NCBI GenBank assembly: GCA_964648105.1
Contig: CAZYMH010000002.1
Location: forward strand, 118,101 to 182,100
Length of the DNA stretch: 64,000 bases
DNA from: an uncultured Candidatus Saccharibacteria bacterium
GTDB lineage: Bacteria > Patescibacteriota > Saccharimonadia > Saccharimonadales > 2-12-FULL-41-12
Direction of reading: 5' to 3'
A program made the translations under genes and the position numbers. Positions 2,763 to 19,802 of the stretch are shown one piece after another. Under the pieces are notes generated by a model that saw nothing but the letters and a program-made list of their open reading frames with translations, made no database searches and was not told where the DNA came from. Numbering within the stretch: the first letter of the stretch is position 1; every line of letters begins with the position of its first letter.

Positions 2763-2780
2763 ATTTGTTTGGGTTAAGTG

Positions 2781-2936: not shown

Positions 2937-2984
2937 ACCAAAACTAAAAACCCACCCACAAGGGGCGGATTCTTAGTTTGGCGG
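2937..2984 (-). other. Displaced 3' trailer and terminator hairpin of tRNA-Ser(UGA), preceded by CCGCCA (attL side of element 1)
   Basis: The minus-strand sequence CCGCCAAACTAAGAATCCGCCCCTTGTGGGTGGGTTTTTAGTTTTGGT matches 45 of 48 aligned columns of the CCGCCA+trailer of tRNA-Ser(GCU) at 33867-33912. Confidence 0.75.
2979..2984. repeat. TGGCGG junction core, left copy (element 1)
   Basis: The same hexamer is found at 19708-19713. It lies exactly at the AT-rich to GC-rich transition. Confidence 0.6.
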
Positions 2985-3091
2985 CCCTCGCGCGATTGAG
3001 GTTGAACCTGAACACCCCGTCCCAATCCGCTTCGCCCCGACCTAGACGCGATCGCGCCAATCGTGGGTAGCCGGGGCTAATCTCTGCGGGT

Positions 3092-3706
3092 ATGGCCGAG
3101 GATCTCGTTGGGCTCCGAGGCGGCGCCGAGCTTGGCGTTACCGCCCTCGCTGCTGCGATCGACCGCATCCATAGCGCGAACGCCAATCTCCTCCGAGGTG
3201 GCGGAGCTGCTCCGACCGCCGCTGCATTGGGGGAAGGGTTGTTCTGGATCGCTGCTCTCGACGACTTCTTTGTCAGCGCCCAACCACCAGGCGTCTACAG
3301 GCGATCCCGAGCGAGTGACACACGAGGGCAGACGGTCGGCGGGCTGATCTACGCGCGGAACGGCCTCGGGCATGGTCTCCACATCGCTGCCGCCGTGCGA
3401 ACTGTGGTGCACTCCCCGACGGTGGTGAAGAGAGACGGACAGGTCACTGTCCAATGGGCTCGTCTTCCCGGTCGCGAATATGGCGCACCGAATCGCGGGA
3501 CCGTGCTCTCGATGCAGTTTGTCTGGGCTGAGCCCGACGTCCTGCCCGTAGCGCCCGGCCGCCAGCACGGGCGGGACCTTTGGTACCGCGACCGTGTGTC
3601 CGGGCGTCCGCTAACCCAACCCCTGACGGTGGGTCTGGACTGGTTCCGCGCCCAGCGGACTTGGCTCCGGGCGTTCGCTCCAGCCGTGCCCACGCCCGCC
3701 GAATAA
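3092..3706 (+). CDS. Hypothetical protein with a possible HEPN-like RNxxxH motif
   Basis: 204-aa ORF with protein-like composition, unlike the overlapping Arg/Pro-rich alternative frames. The motif YARNGLGHG lies at codons 88-96. Confidence 0.45.
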   Translation: MAEDLVGLRGGAELGVTALAAAIDRIHSANANLLRGGGAAPTAAALGEGLFWIAALDDFFVSAQPPGVYRRSRASDTRGQTVGGLIYARNGLGHGLHIAAAVRTVVHSPTVVKRDGQVTVQWARLPGREYGAPNRGTVLSMQFVWAEPDVLPVAPGRQHGRDLWYRDRVSGRPLTQPLTVGLDWFRAQRTWLRAFAPAVPTPAE

Positions 3707-3831
3707 CCCGTGGAGAGCATCGCGGTGACGCCACGGGGGCCGCGACTGGCCCATCAGGTCCGGTCGCCAGCCTGAGATCCAGCTTCCGGGCACGTACACC
3801 TCCCGTCCAGGCAGCGCGCTATCCTCGAAGG

Positions 3832-3963
3832 GTGTCTAACGACTCCGAAAAAGAGCCGGATCCTCCTCCGCCCCCGCCAGCTCCGCCCGAGCCACGCCCG
3901 GACGGTCTTCAGTTGATACAGGAGAGCGATCAGCGGCCCCGAGAGACTCGTGAGCAGCGATAA
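3832..3963 (+). CDS. Proline-rich micro-protein, paralog 1 (43 aa)
   Basis: GTG start 6 nt after a TATCCT -10-like hexamer. It shares VS(N/S)D..., PPEPRxDGL and RPxExRxxR-stop with the next ORF, with synonymous-type DNA differences. Confidence 0.4.
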   Translation: MSNDSEKEPDPPPPPPAPPEPRPDGLQLIQESDQRPRETREQR

Positions 3964-4120
3964 GGACGAGGGCACCCAGCCTAAGCCGGCGGCCACCCCT
4001 TCGGGAGCCAAGCGACCAGCGCCTACGCCCCCTGAGCCGAGGGCAGATGGCTTGAAGACGGTTATCGGAAACGTCTTATGGGAGCCGATCCGGCCCAAGG
4101 AGGACCGTTCGGAGCGCTAG
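3950..4120 (+). CDS. Proline-rich micro-protein, paralog 2 (56 aa)
   Basis: GTG start overlaps the end of paralog 1 in the +1 frame. Same three conserved blocks as 3832-3963. Confidence 0.4.
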   Translation: MSSDKDEGTQPKPAATPSGAKRPAPTPPEPRADGLKTVIGNVLWEPIRPKEDRSER

Positions 4121-4920
4121 AGGTACGGCTCGACGGCAATCAGGGCGAGCAGGTGAAGAACCTGCACGGCCAAGGCGGACATGGCCAGTCGAGCCCAAAG
4201 GGTCTTCGCACCGTCCGTGATCTTGGACCTCCTCGCCGCTTCGGCCCGAAGCGCTACGAGCTGAGCTTGAAAGTCCTGCGGGTTCTGGTAGTAGTCCGCG
4301 TACGCCATCTGTTGCAGACCCTGAGCGTCAAGCAGAACCTGGTGCTCCGTGAGCCGCCAGTCTCCGAGCGCACAGAACGCGGTGAGCGCAAACAGGAGGA
4401 GATTGGTGCCCAACAGGACAGCCATGGCGTGGTCACCATCGGATCGTGAATAGACGGTACTCGCCGCCCCGGCGGCGACGGCCGCAAAGGTGAGAACTTG
4501 CTGACCGCGCGCCGTCAGGTGGCGGGCGTGGGTCAAGCGCCGCTCGTCTGCCCTTGCCGACTCTTGGTCGAGCAGCGCAAGCGTCCCCGCCGACATCACT
4601 GCTTCACCCTTCGGATCCGGGTGAGACTGGGCTTCAGCCGGATTGACCTCGCCAGCAGCCTTCTCGAATTCGTCTCGGCTGACGGCTTTGGCATGCGCCG
4701 GCAGGGTGACGAGCAGCGCGACGGTCGCCAGAAGGAAAGCGAGAGCACCGCTCCCCGCGCAAAGGACGACCGCTCCAGGTCGTGGGACCAGTACCACCAT
4801 GCCGATGGCGACCGCCGAAGCTCCCGCAGCGGCAGCACCAACTGCCACCGACGAACGTTCTTGGGAGACCAGCCAGGCATCCAGCTTTGTCCACACGGCC
4901 TCCAGAGTAGCGGGAACCAC
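4117..4920 (-). CDS. Polytopic membrane protein, unknown function
   Basis: 267 aa with about 5 hydrophobic helices separated by charged loops. GTG start is the first start after the upstream stop. Confidence 0.55.
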   Translation of the reverse strand: MVPATLEAVWTKLDAWLVSQERSSVAVGAAAAGASAVAIGMVVLVPRPGAVVLCAGSGALAFLLATVALLVTLPAHAKAVSRDEFEKAAGEVNPAEAQSHPDPKGEAVMSAGTLALLDQESARADERRLTHARHLTARGQQVLTFAAVAAGAASTVYSRSDGDHAMAVLLGTNLLLFALTAFCALGDWRLTEHQVLLDAQGLQQMAYADYYQNPQDFQAQLVALRAEAARRSKITDGAKTLWARLAMSALAVQVLHLLALIAVEPYL

Positions 4921-4998
4921 GCGGTCGGCGACTTCCGGGTCGTTGACGGCTGAACCCTCCGCCAGCTGGCCAGCTTCACCACGACGTGGCGTCGTTGG

Positions 4999-5496
4999 TC
5001 ACCAGCGTTCGGGATTCTCCTGACTGGTGTTCGCCGAGACCAATCGGAGATTGGGCGCAAGCCGGAATCTATGCTCGTGACGTTCGATGTAAGCCGATAG
5101 GGCCGTGAGCGCTTCCTCCGCAGCCTCGACCGCCGCCTTGCGGTTCTCGGACCCGGCTCCGATGATCTCGGCTAGCTCGATCTGCACATACGCGGCAGCG
5201 ACGGTCGCGAAGGTGTCGTTGTCAATGAGTGGCGTGAGAGACACCCCGTGATCGCGCCAGCAGTAGCGCTCCGGTCGGAAGGAGCGGGCAAGTCTTAGTC
5301 GATTGAAGTGAGAGGTCTCCGCGAACGCGTCCAGACGGACGCGATTCCGCGCCAGTTCTTGCACGATCAGCTTCGCCGCGGCGACACTCTGGGTTCGCTG
5401 TTGATGGTTGGTGGCGAAATATCCGCCGAGCGTGGTCGCCCCTCCGCCCACCAAAGCTCCGAGGATGGCGGCGAATGCTTCAGAAGAGAAGGACAC
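4999..5496 (-). CDS. Membrane-anchored helical protein, unknown function
   Basis: 165 aa with an N-terminal glycine-rich TM helix (AFAAILGALVGGGATTLGGYF) followed by a helical soluble part. Same strand as, and adjacent to, 4117-4920. Confidence 0.5.
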   Translation of the reverse strand: MSFSSEAFAAILGALVGGGATTLGGYFATNHQQRTQSVAAAKLIVQELARNRVRLDAFAETSHFNRLRLARSFRPERYCWRDHGVSLTPLIDNDTFATVAAAYVQIELAEIIGAGSENRKAAVEAAEEALTALSAYIERHEHRFRLAPNLRLVSANTSQENPERW

Positions 5497-5605
5497 GGGT
5501 CAGCCTTGGGTCATGTCGACTCAGTTGGGTGCCCCCGCCGCCTCACCACCGAGCGGGGGCACCCGTGAGGCCGAGCTTCCGTTGGTGCTCAGCGACCTCG
5601 TCCTG

Positions 5606-5785
5606 CTAGCGCCGGGTGGCGTCCACCAGGACGTACCCGATCTCCCCGGGGCGGGTCGGCGGGAAGGGCTCGCCCTTCACGCACGTCACCTCCCGCGTCT
5701 TGCGGTAGCTGGAATCCACCGCGGCGTACTGGCCACTGATCGGCACAGTCTGGCCGGGGCGGTACAGCGTCTTGGAAGTCGTCAT
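5606..5785 (-). CDS. YjzC-like small protein (59 aa, below ORF-track cutoff)
   Basis: ATG preceded by AGGAGG. Translation is MTTSKTLYRPGQTVPISGQYAAVDSSYRKTREVTCVKGEPFPPTRPGEIGYVLVDATRR. The PGQ..P.SGQY...EVT..KGEPFPPT pattern matches the YjzC family. Confidence 0.6.
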   Translation of the reverse strand: MTTSKTLYRPGQTVPISGQYAAVDSSYRKTREVTCVKGEPFPPTRPGEIGYVLVDATRR

Positions 5786-6133
5786 AGGTCCTCACCTCCT
5801 TCCTGGCAGCAATGCCGTGATCTGGTGATCCGCGAGGGTCTCGGCCGTCCAAATCGGACGGGTGGTGATGAGGCTGTCCCGCGCAGTTCTGCAAGCGTAC
5901 CGACAGGGTCGGACGCACTGAGGCGCGGATGCGCAAGCGGCTCGGTCACCACACCAAGCCGCTCGGCGATCACCAGTCACAGCTGCACCAGGAACAGGCC
6001 CCCAGGCGACTGTGGTCGCGAAACTACTTGGTCAGTCGGACGATTCCTCCATGACGTTCGACGTCTCGCTGTGGCCGAAATGTCACCACGGGGGTCGAGG
6101 ACCTTCATCCGGCATGCCAACTAGGCTTCCGCC

Positions 6134-7435
6134 ATGGAGCCAGTGGGAGTGGTCGACCTGTTCTGTGGTGCCGGCGGCCTGTCTGAGGGCTTTCGCGCTG
6201 CAGGAGCCCGGATTCTGGCCGGGACCGACCACGACCCAGATGCCTGCGCGACCTACGCCGCCAATTTCCCGGAGGCGATCGTGGTGTGCGGCGACGTCCG
6301 GGAGCCGGCGATCAGAGAGCGCATTCTGGACGCGGCCGCAGGGGCTCGGGTCGTAGTCGGAGGCCCTCCGTGCCAGGCGTTTTCGCAGGTGCGGAACCAC
6401 GTCCGGATGATCGACGACCCCCGGAATGCGCTCTATCGCGAGTTCGTCGGGATTGTGGATCAGCTCGAACCGGACATCTTCGTGATGGAGAACGTCCCCG
6501 GCATGGACCAGATGGGCGTCCGCGACCAGGTCCTTGCCGACCTGGAGCTCGACGGGCACTACGTGGTCAGGGCTCGACTGCTTGATGCCGTCGACTTTGG
6601 GGTCCCACAGACCAGGAAGCGCATCGTCTTCGTCGGCGTGCGCAGCGACCTGGCTGTGGAGCCGCCCGTCGTCGCTGGTACGGGAGTCGTCGACACCCTG
6701 ACCCTTGCACGCCGGAATGGGACCGAGCCGGTGCACTATGAGGTTCAGGGACCGGGGAGTGGGCTGGCTGCCTGGCAGGAGCGCCTCGTCGACCCCAGGG
6801 ACCTGAGCGTCGTCACGGCCGCTCAGGCGATCGGTGACCTGGCCGCGCTGACTGCGGGCGAGCGGCGTGACAGTCGGCCGACGATCGATTTGGGTCCGGC
6901 GTTGTCGGCCTACCAGGAACTGATGCGTCGAGGCTTGGGGTCCGAGATCACAAACGTCAGCGTTCCTCGGACGAATGCCGACACGGTTCTCCGCCTGAAT
7001 GGCGTCCCGCAGGGCGGGAATCACCGGGACCTGGCTGACGAGCTTCGAGAGCGGTACCTGACGGGGCAGCGCTGGGGGCCAGATGCCGGCAATGGACGCC
7101 TGTCGCGGAGGCACTACTACGCCTACCGGCGTCTGCATCCCGACTTCTGGTCCTGGACGCTCAATACCAAGGCCGACTCCGTCTACCACTACGCCGCAGC
7201 CCGGGCGCTCAGTGTCCGGGAGTTCGCGCGGCTCCAGTCGTTCCCGGATCGCTTCACGTTCACCACGGACGGCCGACGCGGTCCTTTGCCAGGTCGTATT
7301 GAGGGCGGGGCAGCCCACAGTCGCTACCGCCAGGTCGGGAACGCCGTCCCGCCGCTGCTCGCGCAGGCCATCGCCCAGTCGGTGCTCGCGGCGCTCACTG
7401 AGATCCCGGTCCGGAGTGTGGAGACGCTTGCCTGA
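6134..7435 (+). CDS. DNA (cytosine-5)-methyltransferase
   Basis: Motif I DLFCGAGGLSEGF, motif IV GGPPCQAFS, motif VI ENV, motif X QVGNAVPPLLA. Confidence 0.92.
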   Translation: MEPVGVVDLFCGAGGLSEGFRAAGARILAGTDHDPDACATYAANFPEAIVVCGDVREPAIRERILDAAAGARVVVGGPPCQAFSQVRNHVRMIDDPRNALYREFVGIVDQLEPDIFVMENVPGMDQMGVRDQVLADLELDGHYVVRARLLDAVDFGVPQTRKRIVFVGVRSDLAVEPPVVAGTGVVDTLTLARRNGTEPVHYEVQGPGSGLAAWQERLVDPRDLSVVTAAQAIGDLAALTAGERRDSRPTIDLGPALSAYQELMRRGLGSEITNVSVPRTNADTVLRLNGVPQGGNHRDLADELRERYLTGQRWGPDAGNGRLSRRHYYAYRRLHPDFWSWTLNTKADSVYHYAAARALSVREFARLQSFPDRFTFTTDGRRGPLPGRIEGGAAHSRYRQVGNAVPPLLAQAIAQSVLAALTEIPVRSVETLA

Positions 7436-8477
7436 CAGCCTGACGGAGGCGCTCCAGCGCCCCTTCGGCGCAGCGAGCCGCAAAGAGCTCCTCGAGGAGT
7501 ACTTCGCCTCGGCGGGTTCGATCACCGCAGACAACGCCTGGCAGCACGTCTACCGGTTGCTGCTCTGGACGGACCAGACGACCGGACTGGCCCACTGCTA
7601 CGAGAGCGACAAGACGCAGCCCGGCCGGCCCTGGTACGCGCGGTCGCTGGCGTTCCATGGATGGGCAGCGGATCAACTCGGGTCGTCGCCGGCCGAGCTG
7701 TCGTTGGCGATCGACTGGCTGTTCCGGCGGGGCACCGAACGTCTGACTGAAGCGCTCGCGTCTCGGGAGGGACGGCTGGCGAAGCAGGCCGCCAAACAGC
7801 GCACCGGGTTCGAGGACTACCCGGTCCCAGGAGAGGATCCGGAGCTTGAGAAGTTGCTCTTGGAGGACTTCGGCGGGTGGCTGCGGGAGAGGCCTTCGGA
7901 AGAAGCACTCCTCGCCATCACTCGTCGTCTGGGCGCCTACTTCCGCCTAGAGAACAAGCGAAAGAACCTCGTTGGGGAGGGGTTCGAGGACGTCCTGCAA
8001 GCCCTCGTCCTCCGGTTGCGCACCAGCTCGACGGTCTTCGTGATGGTTCGCCCCGTCCTCCACGACGTCCCGGGGTTCCGACACCCACCGGCAAACGAGA
8101 AGCCCCGGAAGGTTGATCTGGTGATCATCACCCAGACCGGCAGGCGCATCTTGGTCTCTGCCAAGTGGAGTGTCCGGGCCGACCGGGAGGAGCAGTTCGA
8201 GGTCGACTATGCGACCTATGCTCGGTTGGAGGAGCACGGCGAAGACTTCGACTTCGTCCTGATCACCAACGAGTTCGATGCCGCTCGACTCGGAGCCGCC
8301 TGCGATCGCCGCCGAGAGGGGCGGGCCCTCTTCTCGTCCGTCGTTCACGTGAACCCAGAAGGTCCGCTCGCAGCCTACGGCTCCGAGCTTCGACGGTCGG
8401 CTGAGCGCCTGCCCGTACTGGTCGAGAGCGGCCGACTGGCTAGCCTTGGGGCATGGCTCAAGAGCCTGGAGCTGTAG
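7416..8477 (+). CDS. Putative type II restriction endonuclease (PD-(D/E)XK-like), start uncertain (GTG 7416 or TTG 7428)
   Basis: It overlaps the methyltransferase stop and sits between the M gene and vsr. The pattern EGFEDVL...KVDLVI...VSAKWSVR is consistent with a D...(D/E)xK core. The ORF-track N-terminal extension from 7083 lies inside the M gene in another frame. Confidence 0.55.
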   Translation: MWRRLPDSLTEALQRPFGAASRKELLEEYFASAGSITADNAWQHVYRLLLWTDQTTGLAHCYESDKTQPGRPWYARSLAFHGWAADQLGSSPAELSLAIDWLFRRGTERLTEALASREGRLAKQAAKQRTGFEDYPVPGEDPELEKLLLEDFGGWLRERPSEEALLAITRRLGAYFRLENKRKNLVGEGFEDVLQALVLRLRTSSTVFVMVRPVLHDVPGFRHPPANEKPRKVDLVIITQTGRRILVSAKWSVRADREEQFEVDYATYARLEEHGEDFDFVLITNEFDAARLGAACDRRREGRALFSSVVHVNPEGPLAAYGSELRRSAERLPVLVESGRLASLGAWLKSLEL

Positions 8478-8911
8478 GCCGGACGATGCCGACGCCTGGC
8501 CGGTCGCGGAACATGGCGGCCATTCGAAGCAAGGACACCAAGCCGGAGCTTCTCTTGCGGCGGGCACTCTGGGCCGCGGGTCTGCGGGGCTACCGGTGCC
8601 ATCATCCTGGCTTGCCCGGGAAACCGGACATCGCCTTCACCAAGCAGAAGGTAGCGATCTTCGTCGACGGGGCCTTCTGGCATGGCCACCCCGAGCACTT
8701 CGCGTTCGGGAAGCTGGGCGCGTACTGGGACGAGAAGGTGAGGCGAACCCAAGAGCGGGATCGGCTTCAGCAGGAAGCGCTAAACGCTTTGGGCTACCGA
8801 GTACTGCGGTTCTGGGACTTCGAACTCCAAGTCAGCACCCGTCCTGCGGTTGAGCGTATAACGGCAAGACTCACCGGTCGAAAACTAGCTGGCGCCCGCA
8901 GATCGAATTGA
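8453..8911 (+). CDS. vsr: Very-short-patch repair endonuclease
   Basis: RSRNMAAIRSKDTKPELLLRRALWAAGLRGYR...GKPDIAF...VAIFVDGAFWHGHP is the Vsr signature. The true start may be the ATG at 8486. Confidence 0.9.
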   Translation: MAQEPGAVGRTMPTPGRSRNMAAIRSKDTKPELLLRRALWAAGLRGYRCHHPGLPGKPDIAFTKQKVAIFVDGAFWHGHPEHFAFGKLGAYWDEKVRRTQERDRLQQEALNALGYRVLRFWDFELQVSTRPAVERITARLTGRKLAGARRSN

Positions 8912-9328
8912 TCGAAACGTATCGGGTGCGACACTGATGCGAAGGGTTCCATCAGCAGCGCGCGAGAAGCTGCTATTGCCGACTGCGTCCAATGAAATCC
9001 GCCCCAGAGCCAGGGCTCGAATCGCTTCAAGAGCCTCCAGGCCTTCGGGACCGTCAAGACTCACGCCATCGCCATCGCCATCGCCATCGGCGTCGCCATC
9101 TGCCGGCTCGGGGTCTGCGTCTGCGTAAGGATCGTCGTCCAGGGCGTCCGGAAACGCACGCAGGTATTTTTCTAGCTCCGGCGCCATAATCCCGGTTCGC
9201 TTCTTGGCTGCTCGATAGAGAGCAGCAAGGTTCGCTTCATCTACGGCGGGCACGGCAACTACCTCAAACCCCATCTCCTCGGCACTAGCCTGCTCGGCCG
9301 TTCTCCGAACCCACTGCCAGCCTAGCAT
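8885..9328 (-). CDS. Acidic protein with (DG)n repeat, unknown function
   Basis: 147 aa with a central DDDPYADADPEPADGDADGDGDGDG tract. It has its own AT-rich upstream region (9329-9395). Confidence 0.45.
   Translation of the reverse strand: MLGWQWVRRTAEQASAEEMGFEVVAVPAVDEANLAALYRAAKKRTGIMAPELEKYLRAFPDALDDDPYADADPEPADGDADGDGDGDGVSLDGPEGLEALEAIRALALGRISLDAVGNSSFSRAADGTLRISVAPDTFRSIRSAGAS
9065..9100. repeat. Hexanucleotide tandem repeat (GCCATC)4-GGCGTC-GCCATC
   Basis: Read directly from the sequence. It encodes the DG repeat of the 8885-9328 ORF on the minus strand. Confidence 0.8.
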
Positions 9329-9395
9329 GTCACCCTTTCAGATTTATTCATATTCTCTCACTATACACACCTGCGCCCGTGATTGCAACTTATGC

Positions 9396-10259
9396 CTACA
9401 CCGCGAGTGAGCTCGCCATAGTCCTAGCGAGCTCCGCAAGACGAGCTTGCGCTTTCGCATCTTCGGTGAGCGGTGTCGATCCGCGCAGGCAGCTGTTAGC
9501 ACTAATACTCACGCAGCCGATAGCTTCGCCGCTATCAGCGTCGTGAACAATCTGAGCGATCACATAACGGTACTTTGCGGCAAGGGCAACTGCTTCCTCG
9601 CGACTGAGGCCGTGAGTACGCGCTGGCCCAAGAGCTGCCCATGCCTGGTCGGAGCCCAACGCCGAGGCGTAGGGCTCCTTGGTCGTGTCGAGACCAAGAC
9701 AGGCCGCTTCTACGTCGTCATCCGTTACGCCCGCAAGGCACGCGCCGACGATTCCTCGCCCCTTCGCGAAGCGAATATTGGTTGGAGCCGGCTTAACGAG
9801 GGCGGCTGCGGCTGCGCGTCCCAACGTTGGTCGAAGAGCGTATTTGGCAAGCCTCGCCCACCGGGGGGTGGATGCCCGCCTTCGCAACCACTGGCGGAGC
9901 CGGAAGGGAAAGAGGCGGCGGTACCAGACCGGCACCTCCCAAACATGTACCACGACATTCAATGTCACCGGCCCCAGTCGCCTATTTTTGCACACAGCGA
10001 GAAGCGTCTCCTGCGCTAGGGCGTGAATGCGATCTCCTCTAAGGGGCCGCTTTGGCCGAACAAACTGCAGCAACACACGCGCGCGTTGAATCGCTGCAGC
10101 TGCTCCCAAGACTATGGCTGAGCCAACTCCCGTCCACGACACAGGCGATAGGCTGAGCGAAAGCGAGATGGCGAATGCTGCAACGACGATGGCAATGCCG
10201 ACGGACGCGCCGATGAGACGACCCGGGGTCACAGCGACGTCTCCCGACAGCCGCTCCAT
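9396..10259 (-). CDS. Two-TM membrane-anchored protein with GAF-like C-terminal domain
   Basis: The N-terminus has two hydrophobic helices. The C-terminus has KGRGIVGACLAG and a terminal ...IAQIVHDADSGEAIGCVSISA pattern resembling GAF domains. Confidence 0.4.
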   Translation of the reverse strand: MERLSGDVAVTPGRLIGASVGIAIVVAAFAISLSLSLSPVSWTGVGSAIVLGAAAAIQRARVLLQFVRPKRPLRGDRIHALAQETLLAVCKNRRLGPVTLNVVVHVWEVPVWYRRLFPFRLRQWLRRRASTPRWARLAKYALRPTLGRAAAAALVKPAPTNIRFAKGRGIVGACLAGVTDDDVEAACLGLDTTKEPYASALGSDQAWAALGPARTHGLSREEAVALAAKYRYVIAQIVHDADSGEAIGCVSISANSCLRGSTPLTEDAKAQARLAELARTMASSLAV

Positions 10260-10278
10260 CGACTCATGGTGAGATCAC

Positions 10279-11566: not shown

Positions 11567-11752
11567 CTCCTCCGTCCAGTTGCGGTTCAGCGGCGCAACC
11601 GTACTACGGGCGGCGGCCGTTCCGAACCTGGACGGACGAGCAGGACGCCCAGGATGTGCCCACTCGCACGCCTGGAGAGTGCCCAGTCCCGGGTCGCATC
11701 CTCTGGCCCAGATCGGTTCAACAGGAGAACCGCACGGGCTGGCGAGGGATGC

Positions 11753-12061: not shown

Positions 12062-12063
12062 CC

Positions 12064-12440: not shown

Positions 12441-12662
12441 CGCGTGCTCGCGCCGAGCGTTCACAAGGCCTGTATGGAGCGCGTTCACCGCTTCGAGCCG
12501 GTGCTTGTTGTCAATTCCACATGCACAAACGTCTTGACTGTCGTGCGTGTGCGACGCATAACAACAAGTAGGGGTTGTCCATGTTGGGCATCGCACCGCA
12601 GGAGTGTGCGGCGGGCGGTGGGCATGGACGCCCCTTGTATGTGTAAGTGGAGGGACTCATGG

Positions 12663-13247
12663 ATGAGACAGATCGAGGAGGGGAACGGACTCCCTGAAGG
12701 GCTGGCGGTACCGACCGCCGATCAGGTGTTCATGGAGCTGCAGCTGGTCACCCGGCGGCTGCGCAGCGTGCAGCGGCTCATCGGGCCGCTGGCGGTCAGC
12801 GAAGCCGGTCCGGAGTGGGCCGAGCTGCAGGAGCACTGTCAGGTGGCGCTGGGCGCACTCAGCGTGGCCGGGGCGATGGTGCCGGATGCGCTGCCCGAGC
12901 ATGAGCGGACTTCGCGTGTCCTGGTCGTCCGGGATCTGACAGTGGATCAGCATGCTCACCGGGCATGGTTCGGAGAGCAGGAATTGGAGCTGGCCGGGTT
13001 GGAGTTCGGCCTGCTCGGCGCCTTGGCAATCGACCCGCTGCGCGTCCGTTCCAAGCAGGAGCTGCTGCGCAGCGTGTGGGGGTATCGCGGCACGCCGCGT
13101 ACCCGCACGGTGGACAGCCACGCCTCGCGGCTTAGGCGAAAGCTCATCGACGCTGGTGCCGGGGGCCATGAGTGGGTGGTCAACCAGTGGGGCGTCGGAT
13201 ACGCCCTGCTGCGGCCAGCCGAGATCTCCGGGGAGGTGCCCCGGTGA
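12663..13247 (+). CDS. Winged-helix (OmpR/Trans_reg_C-type) DNA-binding protein
   Basis: GGAGGG lies 8 nt before the ATG at 12663. The C-terminus LELAGLEFGLLGALAIDPLRVRSKQELLRSVWGY...RTVDSHASRLRRKL...VVNQWGVGYAL is a Trans_reg_C pattern. Confidence 0.7.
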   Translation: MRQIEEGNGLPEGLAVPTADQVFMELQLVTRRLRSVQRLIGPLAVSEAGPEWAELQEHCQVALGALSVAGAMVPDALPEHERTSRVLVVRDLTVDQHAHRAWFGEQELELAGLEFGLLGALAIDPLRVRSKQELLRSVWGYRGTPRTRTVDSHASRLRRKLIDAGAGGHEWVVNQWGVGYALLRPAEISGEVPR

Positions 13248-13420
13248 CCCGACGCAGTGTTCGCGTGCGCCCCATTCCGAGAACCAACGTCGATGTGCCG
13301 AGGCTCAGCCGGGCGCTGTTGGCCATGGCGCGGGAGCTGGAGGCACAGGCCGACGAGGACGCTGCCCAGGCCCGGGAGCAGCAGGTAACGGTGTCGCCTT
13401 CGACGGAGGAGGCGGCGTGA
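13244..13420 (+). CDS. Small hypothetical protein (58 aa)
   Basis: GTG start overlaps the previous stop (GTGA), and its own stop overlaps the next GTG start. Confidence 0.4.
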   Translation: MTRRSVRVRPIPRTNVDVPRLSRALLAMARELEAQADEDAAQAREQQVTVSPSTEEAA

Positions 13421-15669
13421 TCGGCGTCGCGGTCTTCGTGGTGGCGGCCCTGGTCATCGTCGGACTGGTTGCGGCAGCTCGAGCGCTTGACGCGGCTACC
13501 TGGCGAAAAGGACTGGTCGTCTACCGCGTCCGCTTTCCCAGAGGCGTGAAGGCCGAGCAGGTGGCGTCCTGGTTGTCGGCGTTGCCTCCCTCTTCAGGGG
13601 TGCTCGGCCAGGCCCCCATTGGACTGGAGGTGACGGCCACCGAGGCGGGCATCGTCCACCATCTGCTGCTGCCCAAGAAGCAGGCCGAGACCCTGTGCGT
13701 TCAGCTCCAGACGGCCATCGGCGGCGTGCGCTTGGAGAAGACCGACAAGGAAGTCCTGGGCGCCGCGAGCCAAATGCGAGGGGTTGAGCTGCGGGCGACG
13801 TCGCGGAGCTTCCCGCTGGCGGTTGACCGTGTGGAGTCCTCGGCCGCCGCCTTGCTGGCCTCATTAGTGCCGCTATCGCGCGGTGAGGTGATACGGCTGC
13901 AGTGGCTGCTTGTCGGTGCACCTGTTCCGGGGGTGGTGCGGCGTCGGAAGAAGAACGACTCAACGTTCGACCTTGGCCGGCTGTCGGACAGCGAGGAGCT
14001 GCGGGGACTTCGCCAGAAGCACAGTGCGCTGCTGCTCAACGCGACCCTGCGCGTCGGGGTGACGGCCTCGGGTGAGGGCCGCCGCCGGCAGCTTGTGGCC
14101 CGGGCACGGGCTGGGCTGTCGGTGATGGATGCGCCGGGCATGCGCCTGCGGGCGTCGTGGGTTCCGTCGGGTGTTGTGGTGGAGCGGATCCAGCGGCAGG
14201 TGCTGCCGCTGTTGGTCTGGCCGTTGAGCCTCAACGTTCGGGAACTGGTGGGGCTGCTTGGGGTCCCGATCGGGGAGGTGGACTTGCCGGGACTGTCGCT
14301 GGGGGCGGCCCGACAGGTTGCCGCTCCGGTTGGAGCGCTGCGGCGAGGGGTGCTGGTGGCGCGCAGCGATCACGCCCTGACCTTGGACCGGGAGCTGCGC
14401 CTGGAGGTCGATGACCGGCTCCGGCATCTGCACGTCATCGGGCCGACCGGGGTTGGTAAGAGCACGCTGCTGGCCTCACTGGCCCTGCAGGACATTGCAG
14501 CGGATCGGGCCGTCGTGGTCATCGACCCCAAGCGGGACCTGGTGGAGACCATCCTGCGGCGGGTGCCGGAGAACCGGATCGGTGACGTGGTGGTGCTTGA
14601 CCCGGTGGATCTCTCGCGTCCGGTGGGCCTGAACGTGCTCGCCGGTGGCAGGTCGGTGGTCGGGCAGGAACTGGCGGCCGAGCACCTGCTCGGTGTACTG
14701 CGCGATGTCTTCGCTGAAGCGTGGGGACCGCGGACGGACGATGTTCTTCGCGCGGGCCTAAGAACCCTGACGGCCACCAAGGCCAGGGACGGGTCGCGGT
14801 TCACGCTGTGTGAGCTGCCGGAGCTACTGAGTGATCCGGGGTTCCGACGCTCGGTGCTCTCGCAGCCCTCGGTGCCGGAGGCGCTGCGGGGGTTCTGGCA
14901 GTGGTTCGAGGCGGTCAGCGAAGGCGAACGGGCCTCGGTGGTCGCTCCGCCGCTCAACAAGCTGCGGGCCTTCACCACCAGGACCCCAATCCGCCTGTGC
15001 CTCGGACAGAGCGAGGGGTTCGAGCTGCGGCGGGTGTTCACGGATCGCAAGATCCTGCTGGTGCCGCTCTCGGGAGGGGAGCTCGGGGCAGCGACCTCCC
15101 AGCTGCTGGGCGCCCTGATCGTGGCGGGGTTGTGGCAGGCCACCCTCGCCCGGACTCGCGTCGCTGCCGAGCGGCGTCATCCGGTGTTCGTGTTCCTGGA
15201 TGAGTTCCAGGACATCGTGCGGTTGCCGTTGCCGATCGGCGACATGCTGGCCCAGGCCCGAGGGCTCGGGGTCGGGCTGACGCTGGCCCATCAGTACCTC
15301 GATCAGCTGCCGAGGGACGTGCGCACCGGGGTGATGGGAACGGTGCGGTCCCGGGTGGCCTTCCAGCTCGGACAGGACGATGCCCGACACCTGGAGGCCG
15401 GATTCGCGCCGGCACTGGCCGCGGAGGACCTGCGGGGGCTTCCCGCCTGGCACGTGGCACTGCGAGCCGTTGACCACGGGGAGGTGCTGCGACCGGTCAC
15501 CGGGCGAACCGACCCTCTGGCGGGGCCGAGTCTGGCTGCCGGCGTCGTTGCGCGCCTGAGCCGCGAGGGCTTCGGGACACCGCGTGCGTCGGTGGAACGG
15601 GCTCTGCGAGAGCGGGTCGCCGGAGCGGTTCAGGACGTACCGCTGGGCAGAAAGCGAGACGCAGCGTGA
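13417..15669 (+). CDS. Type IV coupling protein (TraD/VirD4/TcpA-like, TraM-recognition-domain type)
   Basis: GGAGGAGG RBS and an N-terminal TM helix. Walker A is VIGPTGVGKST and Walker B is VFVFLDEFQD. The ORF-track extension from 12952 overlaps upstream genes. Confidence 0.8.
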   Translation: MIGVAVFVVAALVIVGLVAAARALDAATWRKGLVVYRVRFPRGVKAEQVASWLSALPPSSGVLGQAPIGLEVTATEAGIVHHLLLPKKQAETLCVQLQTAIGGVRLEKTDKEVLGAASQMRGVELRATSRSFPLAVDRVESSAAALLASLVPLSRGEVIRLQWLLVGAPVPGVVRRRKKNDSTFDLGRLSDSEELRGLRQKHSALLLNATLRVGVTASGEGRRRQLVARARAGLSVMDAPGMRLRASWVPSGVVVERIQRQVLPLLVWPLSLNVRELVGLLGVPIGEVDLPGLSLGAARQVAAPVGALRRGVLVARSDHALTLDRELRLEVDDRLRHLHVIGPTGVGKSTLLASLALQDIAADRAVVVIDPKRDLVETILRRVPENRIGDVVVLDPVDLSRPVGLNVLAGGRSVVGQELAAEHLLGVLRDVFAEAWGPRTDDVLRAGLRTLTATKARDGSRFTLCELPELLSDPGFRRSVLSQPSVPEALRGFWQWFEAVSEGERASVVAPPLNKLRAFTTRTPIRLCLGQSEGFELRRVFTDRKILLVPLSGGELGAATSQLLGALIVAGLWQATLARTRVAAERRHPVFVFLDEFQDIVRLPLPIGDMLAQARGLGVGLTLAHQYLDQLPRDVRTGVMGTVRSRVAFQLGQDDARHLEAGFAPALAAEDLRGLPAWHVALRAVDHGEVLRPVTGRTDPLAGPSLAAGVVARLSREGFGTPRASVERALRERVAGAVQDVPLGRKRDAA

Positions 15670-16619
15670 GCGCCGATCGCTCTACCGGTCGCGTTGAGTC
15701 CGCTGCGAGCGGATCACCTTGGTCACGCGGCTCCGCCGCGCTTAAGGCCGCCGACTACTACCGAAGTGTTCCTGGTCGTTCTTCATCGGGACGGCGGCTG
15801 AGCGCCCGGCGGTTGGTGCTCATCGCTGAGGAGCTGTCGGAGCGGGACGACGCGGTCCTGCAGGCGTTGGCGCGGGTGCGGGTCCTGACGGGTGCTCAGC
15901 TTGAGCGTCTGCTGTTCTCCGACATCGCGGTGGCTTCCCGTGGGCGGACGCGGCGGCGGGTACTCGGGCGTCTGGTGGACCTGGGGCTGGTGGTCACCTT
16001 GGAGCGCCGCATCGGCGGGGTTCGCGCCGGGTCGGCAGGGCTGGTTTACGGACTCTCGGGCGCGGGACAGAAACTGGCCGGGCGGGCGGTGGCCGGTGGG
16101 TCTTCGCCTCGGCCCAGAACCACGGCCACGCCCTCGGCCTTGTTTCTGGCCCACGCCCTGGCGGTCGCCGAAGCGTACGTCGCCACCATGGAAGCGCTGC
16201 GGGGAGTCCCTGGGGTGGCGCTCGCCGGGTTCGACGTGGAGCAGAACGCCACCTGGCCGACGGGGCGTGGGCCGAAGGACCTCCTCCGGCCGGACGCCCT
16301 GGTGGTGCTGACCCGGGAGGAAGTCTCGGACGTCTGGTGGCTGGAGGTCGACCGGGACACCGAGAGCCTGCCAAGGATCGTCCGCCTGCTGCGGCGCTAC
16401 CTGGCGTTCGCCCGCTCCGGACAGGCGGGACCGCGTGGCGTGGTCCCGAGGATGCTGCTCAGTGTCCCCAGCCCGGACCGCCTGGCAGGCGTGCAGACCG
16501 AGATCGCCCGGCTGCCGGCGCCAGCCGCGCAGCTGTTCGCGGTCTGCATGGAGTCCGAGGTGGCTGCGCTGCTGGTAAGCGAGATTTTGGACGACGGCTC
16601 ACCAGTAAGGGAGGCGTAG
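15666..16619 (+). CDS. Replication-relaxation family protein (putative relaxase/initiator of the element)
   Basis: LTGAQLERLLFSD...RRVLGRLVDLGLVVTLERRIGGVRAGSAGLVYGLSGAG matches the Replic_Relax winged-helix N-terminus. GTGA coupling to the T4CP gene. Confidence 0.65.
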   Translation: MSADRSTGRVESAASGSPWSRGSAALKAADYYRSVPGRSSSGRRLSARRLVLIAEELSERDDAVLQALARVRVLTGAQLERLLFSDIAVASRGRTRRRVLGRLVDLGLVVTLERRIGGVRAGSAGLVYGLSGAGQKLAGRAVAGGSSPRPRTTATPSALFLAHALAVAEAYVATMEALRGVPGVALAGFDVEQNATWPTGRGPKDLLRPDALVVLTREEVSDVWWLEVDRDTESLPRIVRLLRRYLAFARSGQAGPRGVVPRMLLSVPSPDRLAGVQTEIARLPAPAAQLFAVCMESEVAALLVSEILDDGSPVREA

Positions 16620-16759
16620 TCATCACTGGACGGATCGTTGTCCATTTCACACGACATTCGTGTTGACGGCGGAACTAATGGCCATGGGACAATGTATGTA
16701 CACACATACCAACCAACGCTTCGCTCATTCGTGAAGCAGAAGGGCACGACGGACGACGT

Positions 16760-17164
16760 ATGACGGCATCCCATCCCCAGTCGAGTTCAGGAAGACACAC
16801 GGACCCGGTGCGGCTGGAAGGCGTCCTGAAGACCGCTCGGGAACAGCAGGGGCTGTCGATCCGTCGTCTTGCTCAGCGTGTTGGTGTCCACCACGCCAGT
16901 CTTGCCCGCATTGAACTGGGTGAGCAGCATCCTTCGACCGGAACTCTTCGCAAGCTGGCCGGAGTGCTGGAACTCGATGAGACGGACCTGTTCGCCTTGG
17001 CCGGCTACCAGCCGCCGGAGCTCCTGCCGTCGTTCCCGGCCTACCTGCGGGCCAAGTACAACATGCCGCCAGAGGCCACCGAGCAGCTCAATGAGTACTT
17101 CAGCTACCTCGCCGAGAAGTACGACATCACGCCGGATGACGCCGAACCACCGACCCAGCGGTAA
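16760..17164 (+). CDS. XRE-family HTH transcriptional regulator
   Basis: LKTAREQQGLSIRRLAQRVGVHHASLARIELGE is an HTH_3 pattern. Confidence 0.8.
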   Translation: MTASHPQSSSGRHTDPVRLEGVLKTAREQQGLSIRRLAQRVGVHHASLARIELGEQHPSTGTLRKLAGVLELDETDLFALAGYQPPELLPSFPAYLRAKYNMPPEATEQLNEYFSYLAEKYDITPDDAEPPTQR

Positions 17165-17229
17165 CCGGCCAGCTCTTCTTCTTTCGCCTCACCACTCTTC
17201 ACTAACAACAATGAAAGGAGGTCATTCTC

Positions 17230-17916
17230 ATGACCATCAACAACACCACACCAGGCAGCGTGCTCGGCTTGCTTCGAGCGCTCATGCCGCCACGGGCCCT
17301 GGAGGTCCACGAAGCCGAAGGCGTCGCTGAACGTCAAGCCCTCAAGCTGCTGTCGCTACTGGACCAGCATTCGCCGGCCGTCGACGTGGCGGCGATCGCC
17401 GAGCTGCCGCGCATCGAGGTGCGGGTCGAGCCGAGGCTGCCGGTGTCCGGGTTCTCGCAGTGGAGCCGCGGGCGGTGGCTGATCGGCATTAACCAGGACG
17501 ACGCCCCAGTGCGCCGCCGGTTCACGCTCGCGCACGAGTTCAAGCACGTCCTGGATCACCCGTTCATTGATGGCGCCTACCTGGACCGCCGCAGACGACC
17601 ATCCGACGCCAGAGCCGAGGCGATCTGCGACGTCTTCGCAGCCTGCCTGCTGATGCCCCGGCCATGGGTCAAACAGGCCTGGATCGGGGGCATCCAAGAC
17701 CAACGAGCCTTGGCCCAGCTGTTCGGGGTCTCTGAGGCGGCGATGGCGCTACGGCTGCGGCAACTCGGGATCACCGGGCCACGCAGCCGCTGGACGAACC
17801 TCACCGGAGAGGACTCCGGAGGCGTTGGCCGCTACTTCCGACGTCCTGCGTCGTCCGTGTCGCTGACAGCGGCTAGGGTCGGGATTCGGTTGCCGGTCAT
17901 GAGCGGAGGCAGCTAG
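17230..17916 (+). CDS. ImmA/IrrE-family metallopeptidase
   Basis: HEFKH zinc-binding motif (LAHEFKHVLDH) immediately downstream of the XRE gene. This is the classic ICE/prophage induction pair. Confidence 0.8.
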   Translation: MTINNTTPGSVLGLLRALMPPRALEVHEAEGVAERQALKLLSLLDQHSPAVDVAAIAELPRIEVRVEPRLPVSGFSQWSRGRWLIGINQDDAPVRRRFTLAHEFKHVLDHPFIDGAYLDRRRRPSDARAEAICDVFAACLLMPRPWVKQAWIGGIQDQRALAQLFGVSEAAMALRLRQLGITGPRSRWTNLTGEDSGGVGRYFRRPASSVSLTAARVGIRLPVMSGGS

Positions 17917-17918
17917 CG

Positions 17919-19802
17919 ATGCACCAGGAAGAAACACCCATGGAGCCCACGGCGGACGGTGGTTCGGTGGCGGTGCCGACGAAGACCGCGGTGATCTACC
18001 TGCGGGTCTCGACCTCGGCACAGGCCGACACCGACTACAGCAGCGAGGGGTACTCCATCCCGGCCCAGCGGGAGGCCTGCCGGCGCACCGCTGAGAATCT
18101 CGATGCCCGGGTGGTGGAGGAGTACGTCGACCGGGGGGAGAGCGCTCGCTCGGCTGACCGGCCAGCTCTGCTGTCCATGCTGGAGCGGCTGCGGACCCAG
18201 CGGGACGTCGACTACGTCATCGTCCACAAGGTCGACCGCTTGGCCCGGAACAGGGCCGATGACATTGAGATCGCCCTGGCGATTCGCAGTGCCGGGGCGG
18301 CGCTGGTGTCGGCCACCGAGAACATCGACACCACCCCCTCGGGGGCCTTGCTACACGGGATCATGGCCACCATCGCCGAGTTCTACTCGCAGAACCTGGC
18401 GGCGGAGGTCAGGAAGGGCCTGCTGCAGAAGGTCCGCCTCGGGGGCACACCGACCCGTGCGCCGCTTGGGTACCTGAACGTCATCGACCGGGTTGAGGGC
18501 CGTGAGATCCGCAGCGTGCGGACGGATCAGGAGCGGGCCCCGCACATCCAGTGGATGTTCGAGGCCTACGCCTCAGGGGACTACCTCATCCGAGAACTCG
18601 CCGACGAACTGGCAGAGCGAGGACTCCGGACCCGGCCCACACCGAAGCGACCGACCGGCGTGCCGGTGACCACCTCCATGGTCGAGCGGATGCTCGCCAA
18701 CCCGTACTACGTCGGGGTGGTGCTGTTCGAGGGGGTGGAGTACCAGGGCCGGCACGAGCCACTGATCTCCCGGGAGCTGTTCGAGGCGGTACAGACCTTG
18801 AAGGCATCCCGGCGCCTGTCCAAGGAGAAGCCCTACCAGCATCCGCACTACCTCAAGGGCACGGTGTTCTGCGGAACCTGCGGTGAACGGCTCGGGGTGA
18901 TGAAGGCCCGGAACCGTCACGGCCAGACCTACCCGTATTTCTACTGTTTGGGTCGGCAGAAGCACCGGACCCGGTGCGACCAGCCCTACGTCTCCATCGA
19001 CGTTGTGGAAGACCGCGTCGAGGCCCTGTGGCAGTCAGTGGTCCTGCCGGAGGATGTCTGTGCAGCCATCCGTCGGGCGGTACTGGATCTCGCCGGGCGA
19101 ATGCATGTCGAACAAGCCCAGGAGATCGACCGACAGGCCAAGGCTCTGGCACGCCTGGACTCCGAGCGAGAGAAGCTGCTCCAGGCCCACTACGCCGGTG
19201 CCGTTCCCCTGGACCTCCTCAAGCGGGAGCAGGAGCGGATCGCGCGGGAGATGGCCCGGGCCGAGAGCATCACCGGTCGACTGAACGCCGAGATCGGGGA
19301 CGTGGAGCGCGGGCTGGAGGAGGCACTGGGGCTCCTCGGTGACGCCAACCGGCTCTACCAGCTGGCACCACATCACATCCGACGCCAGCTCAACCAGGCC
19401 GTCTTCGAACGCATCCTGGTCGACAGCGATTCCATGCCCTACGGGCGCCTGGCGGCACCCTTCGGGCAACTGCTGGAGCTGGCGGAACGGACCGAGACAC
19501 GGAACGTCGAGGAGCAGGTCGCCGAGGAGCGACTCCAGCGCTACCTGCGCACCGGACCACCGCGAAGACGAAGCCGCAAGGCGATGGAAGCTGCCGTCGC
19601 GCGGATCTTGGGCGACGGCGAGGGCGGGGCCATCACGACGAACAGCTCCGAAAACGACGAGAACCCCGACCGATCTGCGATCGGCCAGGGTTCAAACGTC
19701 GTACTAATGGCGGAGAGAGAGGGATTCGAACCCTCGGTACCGTTGCCGGCACGACGGTTTTCAAGACCGTTTCCTTCAACCACTCGGACATCTCTCCATT
19801 GA
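17919..19802 (+). CDS. Large serine recombinase (integrase of element 1); last ~30 codons lie in tRNA-Ser antisense sequence
   Basis: VIYLRVSTSAQ catalytic-Ser N-terminus, a recombinase domain, a zinc ribbon (CGTCGERL...YYCLGRQKHRTRCDQPY) and a coiled-coil region. The frame has no stop before the junction at 19707/19708. Confidence 0.9.
   Translation: MHQEETPMEPTADGGSVAVPTKTAVIYLRVSTSAQADTDYSSEGYSIPAQREACRRTAENLDARVVEEYVDRGESARSADRPALLSMLERLRTQRDVDYVIVHKVDRLARNRADDIEIALAIRSAGAALVSATENIDTTPSGALLHGIMATIAEFYSQNLAAEVRKGLLQKVRLGGTPTRAPLGYLNVIDRVEGREIRSVRTDQERAPHIQWMFEAYASGDYLIRELADELAERGLRTRPTPKRPTGVPVTTSMVERMLANPYYVGVVLFEGVEYQGRHEPLISRELFEAVQTLKASRRLSKEKPYQHPHYLKGTVFCGTCGERLGVMKARNRHGQTYPYFYCLGRQKHRTRCDQPYVSIDVVEDRVEALWQSVVLPEDVCAAIRRAVLDLAGRMHVEQAQEIDRQAKALARLDSEREKLLQAHYAGAVPLDLLKREQERIAREMARAESITGRLNAEIGDVERGLEEALGLLGDANRLYQLAPHHIRRQLNQAVFERILVDSDSMPYGRLAAPFGQLLELAERTETRNVEEQVAEERLQRYLRTGPPRRRSRKAMEAAVARILGDGEGGAITTNSSENDENPDRSAIGQGSNVVLMAEREGFEPSVPLPARRFSRPFPSTTRTSLH
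19708..19713. repeat. TGGCGG junction core, right copy (element 1), equals the CCGCCA 3' end of tRNA-Ser(UGA)
   Basis: Identical hexamer to 2979-2984. It lies exactly at the GC-rich to tRNA transition. Confidence 0.6.
19708..19797 (-). tRNA. tRNA-Ser (anticodon UGA), type II, CCA encoded
   Basis: The reverse complement GGAGAGATGTCCGAGTGGTTGAAGGAAACGGT-CTTGAAA-ACCGT...CGAGGGTTCGAATCCCTCTCTCTCCGCCA is 90 nt. The last 29 nt are identical to tRNA-Ser(GCU) at 33844-33872. Confidence 0.9.

Follow-up and report, generated by a model that had tools for sequence, protein, structure and literature searches.

Probable insertion of a GC-rich, actinobacterial-type element by a large serine recombinase at the CCA end of a Saccharibacteria tRNA-Ser gene

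How does a 16.7-kb block with a GC content above 0.6 come to lie inside the AT-rich chromosome of a Saccharibacterium? The question is posed by a 64-kb window (64,000 nucleotides, positions 118,101 to 182,100 of contig CAZYMH010000002.1, assembly GCA_964648105.1) from an uncultured Candidatus Saccharibacteria bacterium of the order Saccharimonadales; all coordinates given here are those of the window. The named relatives of its DnaA (56129-57535, minus strand), at 68-72% identity, are Candidatus Saccharibacteria and Saccharimonadales, and the AT-rich chromosome is therefore that of a Saccharibacterium. We consider it about 85% probable that the GC-rich island is no artefact but an actinobacterial-type element which a large serine recombinase (LSR) inserted site-specifically into the native Saccharibacteria tRNA-Ser(UGA) gene, at its CCA end.

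The first line of evidence is the geometry of the two junctions. In 1-kb windows, GC content is 0.38-0.42 up to position 3000, 0.61-0.71 across 3001-19000 and 0.35-0.46 beyond. Reading of the sequence places the switch points at 2984/2985 on the left and 19707/19708 on the right, so that the island covers 2985-19707 (16.7 kb, or 16,729 bp with one copy of the core included). ARAGORN and Rfam identify four tRNA genes in the window: Ser(cga) at 2156-2247 (minus), Ser(tga) at 19708-19797 (minus), Arg(gcg) at 32964-33040 (minus) and Ser(gct) at 33780-33872 (plus). The second of these, tRNA-Ser(UGA), begins exactly at the right junction and is intact (Rfam score 59.7 bits). Its final 29 nt, CGAGGGTTCGAATCCCTCTCTCTCCGCCA, are the same as those of tRNA-Ser(GCU). 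Its acceptor halves pair with each other (GGAGAGA/TCTCTCC); the 3′ end thus matches its own 5′ half, as expected of a coherent native Saccharibacteria tRNA.

On the left, the minus strand across 2937-2984 gives CCGCCA followed by a hairpin; its alignment to the trailer of tRNA-Ser(GCU) spans 48 columns, of which 45 are matches, 1 is a mismatch and 2 are gaps. Positions 2937-2978 (minus) are accordingly read as the displaced native 3′ trailer of tRNA-Ser(UGA), with a long, terminator-like hairpin fold, and removing the island in silico restores a tRNA followed by its trailer. The hexamer TGGCGG, the complement of CCGCCA (the last acceptor bases, the discriminator and CCA), stands at both junctions, as the core of attL (2979-2984) and of attR (19708-19713). 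By itself the hexamer is weak evidence, since it occurs 58 times on the two strands of the window. An earlier note on this DNA, made from the letters alone, had already described the abrupt switch in composition, the intact native tRNA, the displaced trailer and the paired hexamers, and each of these observations holds.

The second line of evidence comes from near-identical copies elsewhere. By exact-protein look-up, the island's relaxase and ImmA proteins recur unchanged in contigs of many other samples, the relaxase in 17 contigs. In BLASTN comparisons these contigs are 98.6-99.96% identical to the window; the ones that reach 19707 are 99.5-99.96% identical, with the leftmost start at 9064. 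In four of them (L010, L015, L016 and L017) the island is directly followed by a tRNA-Ser(GGA) gene, and in the longer three, L015-L017, by a divergent tRNA-Ser(CGA) and 70%-GC genes. Contigs with this actinobacterial tRNA-Ser(GGA) context are 99.7-99.95% identical to the window over 3-7 kb. A LOG-family protein in the flank has its nearest named relatives in Thermoleophilia (75%), Actinomycetota (70%) and Gaiellales (66%). An environmental actinobacterium of the Thermoleophilia type therefore houses the island. A contig from another sample, whose host context is not seen (L005), has 4 differences from the window in 9.2 kb. The closest relative in a complete genome, CP064356.1, has an LSR 73% identical, at tRNA-Ser(CGA), and the same module order of regulator, coupling protein, relaxase, XRE, ImmA and LSR. 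The actinobacterial origin proposed in the earlier note is borne out by these copies; its candidate donors, the oral genera Actinomyces, Schaalia, Bifidobacterium and Corynebacterium, give way to an environmental, Thermoleophilia-like lineage, as indicated by the LOG protein.

The actinobacterial copies stop at the same island base as the window copy (...GTCGTACTAA|TGGCGG). Beyond it, the tRNA end reads TGGCGGAGAGgGAGGGATTtGAACCCTCGaag in the actinobacterial contigs versus TGGCGGAGAGaGAGGGATTcGAACCCTCGgta in the window; 2 of 29 nt differ, and the longest run common to the two ends is 10 nt. The acceptor halves of the actinobacterial tRNA-Ser(GGA) are GGAGAGG/CCTCTCC. These details bear on the most obvious alternative, that assembly or binning joined the GC-rich block of a co-sampled actinobacterium to a Saccharibacteria contig through the conserved tRNA-Ser 3′ end. 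Such a chimera would fit the extreme compositional contrast, the residence of the same island in an actinobacterial genome and the repetition of the 29-nt tRNA end within the window. It would also fit the way in which Logan contigs (k=31), drawn from runs SRR13355620-22, tile the window at 100% identity: L001 covers 1-2764, L018 covers 2737-6166, L004 covers 6137-19735 and L003 covers 19735-30145, with breaks at 6137-6166 and, within the tRNA, at 19735.

The same contigs, however, argue against a chimera. L018 bridges the left junction, linking 248 nt of Saccharibacteria flank, displaced trailer included, to the left end of the island at a point where the shared sequence is just 6 nt long. L004 passes the right junction by 28 nt, with Saccharibacteria-type bases. 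Because the two tRNA ends have at most 10 consecutive nt in common, an assembler slip between genomes at that point is ruled out. Both breakpoints coincide exactly with the ends that the recombinase defines, that on the right with the base used in the actinobacterial copies, and the rebuilding of tRNA plus trailer is a further argument for a real event. Finally, like insertions occur at no fewer than eight loci (≥8) in about seven other Saccharibacteria assemblies from different studies, among them contigs of 797 kb and 950 kb. A chimera is in our judgement very improbable. Two narrower versions of the objection were considered and rejected: a k-mer chimera through the tRNA end fails on the 10-nt limit of consecutive shared bases, and a tRNA 3′ end carried in by the island fails on its pairing with the Saccharibacteria 5′ acceptor half and its difference from the actinobacterial version.

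Several points nonetheless weigh against the main reading. L004 and L003 overlap by 1 nt only, and the 28 nt of L004 beyond the junction also match tRNA-Ser(GCU), so these contigs tie the island to a Saccharibacteria serine-tRNA end and not uniquely to the UGA body. The link from island to tRNA body at the right junction rests on the deposited assembly, and the left junction alone is fully bridged. The Logan contigs were probably assembled from the read sets behind the deposited contig, which makes them independent in method and not in data. No actinobacterial context was found for the left 6 kb of the island (2985-8911), so the actinobacterial attL and attB cannot be compared with those of the window; exact matches to the left-end cargo proteins come only from the deposited contig (182,224 nt) and runs SRR13355620-22, and the putative restriction endonuclease described below is likewise confined to these samples. 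A scan of metagenome contigs from the Joint Genome Institute with the flanking DEAD-box helicase (20656-21888) gave no empty site for this species: the best relatives are 50-62% identical and none has a tRNA-Ser(UGA) nearby. The empty site that the earlier note had looked to is replaced by a substitute that does support insertion, a reciprocal pair of occupied and empty sites in related genomes, L063 and L059. The circular attP junction, on which the note had also counted, found no match in IMG/VR, and nor did other contexts of the island. To be listed here as well is the LSR gene's lack of a stop codon of its own. Its open reading frame (ORF) runs for 596 codons inside the island, continues through the tRNA in antisense and stops at 19800-19802, a detail absent from the earlier note and a trait of the clade to which this LSR belongs. 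Exact-protein look-up returned neither the 627-aa read-through LSR nor a 204-aa cargo ORF as a called gene.

The contig breaks deserve a remark of their own. Those at 6137-6166 and 19706-19764 are the same in all three runs and point to a second context, within these samples, for the right 13.6 kb of the island and for part of the tRNA. This could be a further strain, a different variant of the island or a copy in the donor.

What kind of element is the island? Its integration gene, the LSR (17919..19802, plus strand), carries Resolvase (PF00239, 3e-32), Recombinase (PF07508, 7e-14) and zinc-ribbon (PF13408, Zn_ribbon_recom, 3e-11) domains in that order, as LSRs do, and its C-terminal part is long enough for a coiled-coil. 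Directly upstream, and also on the plus strand, lie an OmpR/PhoB-type winged-helix DNA-binding protein without a receiver domain (12663..13247; PF00486, Trans_reg_C, 1e-16; 69% identical in CP064356.1), a 750-aa ATPase resembling type IV coupling proteins (T4CPs; 13417..15669; T4SS-DNA_transf, TrwB_AAD_bind and TraD Walker region), a putative relaxase of the Replic_Relax family (15666..16619; PF13814, 1.2e-35), an XRE-type helix-turn-helix repressor (16760..17164; PF01381, HTH_3, 1.3e-14) and an ImmA/IrrE metalloprotease (17230..17916; PF06114, Peptidase_M78, 5e-20), the antirepressor partner of XRE. The XRE/ImmA pair probably handles maintenance and control of excision. The T4CP-like ATPase adjoins a relaxase in 14 related loci. 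Start and stop codons are coupled by GTGA overlaps at 13417-13420 and 15666-15669, as first noted from the sequence, and GC content at third codon positions is 0.76-0.85 across the island's genes.

Further left lies putative restriction-modification cargo of type II, all on the plus strand. The C-5 cytosine DNA methyltransferase Dcm (6134..7435; PF00145, 2.7e-55; PADLOC MTase_II, 1e-87) and the very-short-patch repair endonuclease Vsr (8486..8911; PF03852, 7e-26) are clear. The 353-aa protein between them (7416..8477) is a putative restriction endonuclease by position only, overlapping the dcm stop and preceding vsr; Pfam, PADLOC and further family searches gave it no match. The same searches found no family for six genes of the conserved module, called from identical contigs (8885-9328, 9396-10259 and 10739-11566 on the minus strand; 11753-12061, 12064-12285 and 12282-12440 on the plus strand). 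The left cargo region (3077..5496) holds an ORF that can be called either as 3092-3706 (plus, 204 aa) or as 3077-3568 (minus, 163 aa), a predicted membrane protein of 267 aa (4117-4920, minus) and a 165-aa ORF (4999-5496, minus), none with a Pfam or PADLOC match. The gene set listed in the earlier note is therefore confirmed by Pfam for the T4CP, relaxase, XRE, ImmA, LSR, Dcm and Vsr; the restriction endonuclease stays putative.

Among the island ORFs searched, there was no VirB4 or other family of type IV secretion systems (T4SSs), no FtsK-like TraB and no tyrosine recombinase, and only 6 bp are duplicated at the ends. Since mating-pore genes are lacking, the element is classed as an integrative and mobilizable element (IME) rather than an integrative and conjugative element (ICE); its relaxase and coupling protein predict that it is mobilized, although no oriT was identified. 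Of the combined ICE/IME label used earlier, the mobilizable half stands and the self-transmissible half falls away. The sole VirB4 of the window (44787-46703) is chromosomal, of native GC content and 25 kb from the island. This CD1110-family protein belongs to a chromosomal T4SS cluster of Patescibacteria type at 42788-53704, together with a TrsD-like protein (43840-44787) and large neighbouring ORFs, some 10 kb from dnaA. A T4SS cluster near dnaA is an arrangement described for this phylum (PMC12102498).

Why would such an element sit at the end of a tRNA gene? An LSR scan with one genome per GTDB species gave 48 loci at 39-84% identity, in Actinomycetota and in many Saccharibacteria metagenome-assembled genomes (MAGs). 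A junction alignment was built from 26 loci (24 of the 48, CP064356.1 as L068, and the window), and in these a tRNA gene on the opposite strand starts within about 250 nt past the matched part of the LSR. The tRNAs adjoining the LSR across loci are those for Ser, Ala, Met, Glu, Pro, Leu, Val and Arg. The right-junction consensus is CGGGGTTCnAACGT-N6-T-N|TGG. Within it, 23 of the 26 loci have the motif GGTTCGAAC, with up to 2 mismatches allowed, at precisely position -19 relative to the T of TGG. The GGTT columns of the motif are 88-100% conserved, and the open frame crosses the junction into the tRNA in all loci except one (25/26). Across the core from it stands the tRNA T-arm, GGGATTCGAACCC, of which the motif is a mirror image.

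The window follows this plan. The P arm of its attP (19663..19707) contains GGTTCAAAC at 19689-19697, 19 nt before the tRNA end, and the P′ arm at the island's left end (2985..3010) contains GGTTGAACC at 3000-3008, 15 nt past TGGCGG; the half-sites first proposed from the sequence alone thus fit a family-wide motif, the P-arm one at the position kept in 23 of 26 loci. The core is short, long direct repeats are absent and the arms are imperfect inverted repeats, all as in LSR sites generally. TTCGAA-like hexamers in the two arms (19690-19695 and 3002-3006) have their centres about 20 bp to each side of the last GG of TGGCGG, about which the reconstructed attP is roughly dyad-symmetric. The attB counterpart is the tRNA gene itself (19708..19797, minus), whose acceptor 3′ strand and T-arm form the B′ arm; here some 15 bp separate the crossover from the centre of the T-loop hexamer. 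Rutherford and Van Duyne (2013), in their model of the LI integrase, reportedly place the outer, zinc-ribbon motif about 5 bp further inward in attB than in attP, and spacings of about 20 and 15 bp fit that register shift. The P′ arm of the mini-element L029 is alike (TGGCGG-N14-GGTTCGAAC), while pattern searches for P′ arms in L068, L020, L022, L025, L027, L037, L038, L042 and L055 gave nothing convincing. TGGCGG is present in both attL and attR of L029, L034 and L063. It is the sole block common to attL and attR in the window, L029 and L034 (L063 shares 11 nt), and the crossover must consequently fall within it. Taken together, these sequences suggest that the LSR clade recognises the T-arm, the acceptor end and the CCA of tRNA genes.

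Two further features recur near these sites. An inverted repeat of the GAACCCC...GGGGTTC type is usual upstream of GGTTCGAAC in the LSR loci, for example in L027, L068 and the window (19663-19697), where it consists of GAACCC (19663-19668) and GGGTTC (19688-19693). Once the element is integrated, this repeat would fold into a hairpin immediately downstream of the tRNA, and may serve as a replacement terminator or a protein-binding site. In Amycolatopsis and Spongiactinospora loci (L025 at 7648, L027 at 9647, L064 at 9646), the LSR is preceded, at a distance of about 350 nt, by a stretch resembling a tRNA 3′ end, TGGTGG(C)NCCTCCCAGACTCGAACTGGGGACAC, which may be a decoy or a tRNA end that was displaced, in or beside the elements.

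These observations suggest how the island arrived. An IME of a Thermoleophilia-like actinomycetote would have reached a Saccharimonadales cell, either by natural transformation or through the mating pore of a helper, with its own relaxase and coupling protein mobilizing it. Its own LSR would then recombine the attP of the circular form (19707 joined through TGGCGG to 2985) with a chromosomal attB made of the last bases of tRNA-Ser(UGA), namely the acceptor end, discriminator and CCA. The crossover would take place somewhere inside TGGCGG, although we can only infer the exact dinucleotide; a crossover there would leave the tRNA whole and merely move its 3′ trailer 16.7 kb away. Recognition would depend on the universal tRNA end, read by a clade whose two attP arms each carry a GGTTCGAAC-like motif mirroring the T-arm. 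Since the tRNA end is nearly the same in all bacteria, an element housed at an actinobacterial tRNA-Ser(GGA) could enter a Saccharibacterial tRNA-Ser(UGA). Transfer would presumably run from host to epibiont, the donor may have been the physical host, and the element may still be active.

The earlier note regarded the event as an unusual integration across phyla. It is not a one-off: related GC-rich LSR islands lie at tRNA ends in AT-rich flanks of several other Saccharibacteria assemblies, the eight or more loci mentioned above. They include islands at tRNA-Leu (L026), tRNA-Ser(UGA) on a 797-kb contig (L063), tRNA-Val (L037), tRNA-Pro on a 950-kb contig (L038) and tRNA-Ala (L042), the last three with a T4CP-relaxase pair. 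Three more adjoin tRNA-Ser(CGA), two of them on separate contigs of one MAG (L034 and L059) and the third being the 3.4-kb mini-element L029. Between L063 and the L034/L059 MAG, the host flanks are only 81% identical but the LSR modules 96.5-97% identical, at different serine tRNAs, and the tRNA-Ser(UGA) site that is occupied in L063 is empty in L059.

A real insertion need not be a recent import. The island could instead be a long-resident Saccharibacterial element, or one that Actinomycetota received from Saccharibacteria; members of the LSR family are common across Saccharibacteria, and a rough neighbour-joining distance tree shows a separate Saccharibacterial clade of native GC content (L043-L053). 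In the same tree, the GC-rich Saccharibacterial LSRs are spread among different actinobacterial branches, and the window LSR groups with L020 and CP064356.1. This scatter speaks against long residence, as do the island's GC content (0.61-0.70, versus 0.40 for the host), the third-position GC content of its genes and its 99.5-99.96% identity to copies within a 70%-GC genome. The nearest LSRs, at 65-76% identity, include CP064356.1 (locus GC 58-74%) and the MAG contig L020 (66-72%), the rest being metagenome contigs. We regard a resident or outward-moving element as extremely improbable. The tree as a whole fits repeated imports plus an older resident lineage.

A further point in favour of long residence lies in the window itself. 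A second LSR (31332-33029, plus; 565 aa; Resolvase, Recombinase and zinc ribbon; GC 0.41) likewise enters the antisense of a tRNA gene, tRNA-Arg(GCG) at 32964-33040 (minus). TGGTAC occurs at 24132, with GGTTAGGTC 14 nt further on, and a resident element of about 8.8 kb at 24132-32969, with its left end at 24132, is possible. It would contain an Rv2179c-like exonuclease, DUF5659 and genes of no assigned function.

Is the insertion alive? It may be real and yet inert, a dead-end capture, for example by natural transformation, that neither excises nor transfers in this host. Saccharibacteria are naturally competent, and their T4SS is without relaxase and coupling protein (PMC10633639); resident Patescibacteria T4SSs generally lack both and are thought to be non-conjugative (PMC12102498, PMC10633639). 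Expression from GC-rich genes and promoters may be poor in a host of 40% GC, and no circular junction was found in IMG/VR. On the other hand, the conserved-module genes are all intact and differ from other copies by few bases. Transformation brings in single strands, whereas the recombinase requires a double-stranded circular attP. The closely similar LSR modules at different tRNA-Ser genes of two species, L063 and the L034/L059 MAG, point to repeated activity in or into the phylum. On balance we consider an inert insertion unlikely, though far less so than a chimera.

How does the element relate to known systems? IMEs of Gram-positive bacteria (PMC5704250) share its LSR integration module, its relaxase and T4CP without mating-pore genes, its putative XRE/ImmA switch and its putative restriction-modification cargo. 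It differs from them in its target, a tRNA gene end, in its Replic_Relax (PF13814) relaxase and in its presence in two phyla at more than 99.5% identity. The island probably belongs to a class recorded in a survey of Patescibacteria, which counted 109 relaxases in 103 genomes, 39 of them beside t4cp, and read them as acquired mobile elements (PMC12102498). That survey offers counts only, with no integration sites, serine recombinases, tRNA targets, GC contrasts or donors.

Small actinobacterial elements that integrate at tRNA gene 3′ ends and transfer with very few genes are well known as actinomycete integrative and conjugative elements (AICEs), such as pSAM2 and SLP1. AICEs, as generally understood, use tyrosine integrases, and the copy of the tRNA 3′ end in attP yields a long direct repeat; here there is a serine recombinase and a 6-bp core. 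AICEs are likewise understood to move double-stranded DNA with an FtsK-like TraB and a Rep protein, in contrast to the VirD4/TraD-like ATPase and relaxase found here. The LSR shares its domain architecture, dyad-symmetric attP and short core with phiC31, Bxb1, A118/LI, TP901-1 and CcrAB of SCCmec. Those characterized serine integrases target protein-coding genes or intergenic sites, whereas the window clade is directed at tRNA CCA ends and has an ORF that extends over the att site. Solved structures match the window LSR in the catalytic domain only, and phage integrases were distant matches, below 32% identity. The search for relatives returned none that has been studied experimentally and no match to plasmid DNA.

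One serine-family enzyme is said to act at a serine tRNA gene. The small serine recombinase of phiRSM reportedly has a tRNA-Ser gene as its attB, in work attributed to Askora et al. (2011). It differs from the window LSR in being small and resolvase-like, without recombinase and zinc-ribbon domains, and in its unrelated context, a filamentous phage of a proteobacterium.

The Islander paper states that serine-family integrases are not known to target tRNA genes (PMC4383910). The tRNA islands that Islander recognises combine a tyrosine integrase with a displaced fragment of the tRNA, present as a second copy at the island's other end, and neither is found here. The word tRNA is absent from the large LSR survey of Durrant et al. 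A literature search, with subscription journals outside its coverage, gave no account of tRNA-targeting LSRs or of actinobacterial LSR elements in Saccharibacteria.

Some features of the left flank stand apart from these arguments. Between the displaced trailer and a gene for an 82-aa membrane protein lies a 150-nt region (2790-2940); the minus strand of 2770-2990 folds very strongly, at -102.9 kcal/mol (z = -7.9). This region contains a degenerate stretch resembling a tRNA-Ser 3′ end (2797-2822, minus), a T-loop-like GTTCGAATCCC and CCTCTCCACCA at 2930-2940 (plus). Rfam gave chance-level matches only on 2700-3050. The region could be a small RNA of a new kind or the scar of an older integration. 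After the 82-aa gene, at the point where L001 and L018 break, there is a palindrome at 2735-2766, perfect over at least 30 nt (ATAACCCCTGTGAATTCACAGGGGTTAT), which is likely a terminator.

The island comes close to a transfer of a mobile element between phyla caught in the act. Saccharibacteria are obligate epibionts with known actinobacterial hosts, and such elements could for that reason mark epibiont-host links in uncultured lineages; here they suggest a Thermoleophilia-type partner, outside the cultured host groups. The LSR clade contradicts the textbook rule that islands in tRNA genes are made by tyrosine integrases, and its proposed recognition of the T-arm and CCA end would be a straightforward explanation for integration across a very broad range. 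A recombinase that has probably integrated 17 kb into a Saccharibacteria chromosome without damage to its target gene is also a candidate genetic tool for a phylum that has very few. Of most interest is what emerges at the level of the family: a large LSR clade directed at tRNA CCA ends, by which elements pass between Actinomycetota and Saccharibacteria. In its fullest form this picture is tentative, and we hold it to be possible rather than probable: an undescribed clade specialised on the universal tRNA 3′ end, with attP arms that mimic the T-arm, whose elements would jump repeatedly from Actinomycetota into their Saccharibacteria epibionts. The clade would then be a ready-made integration system for Patescibacteria, and its insertions would record who lives on whom, in this case on a Thermoleophilia-like host.

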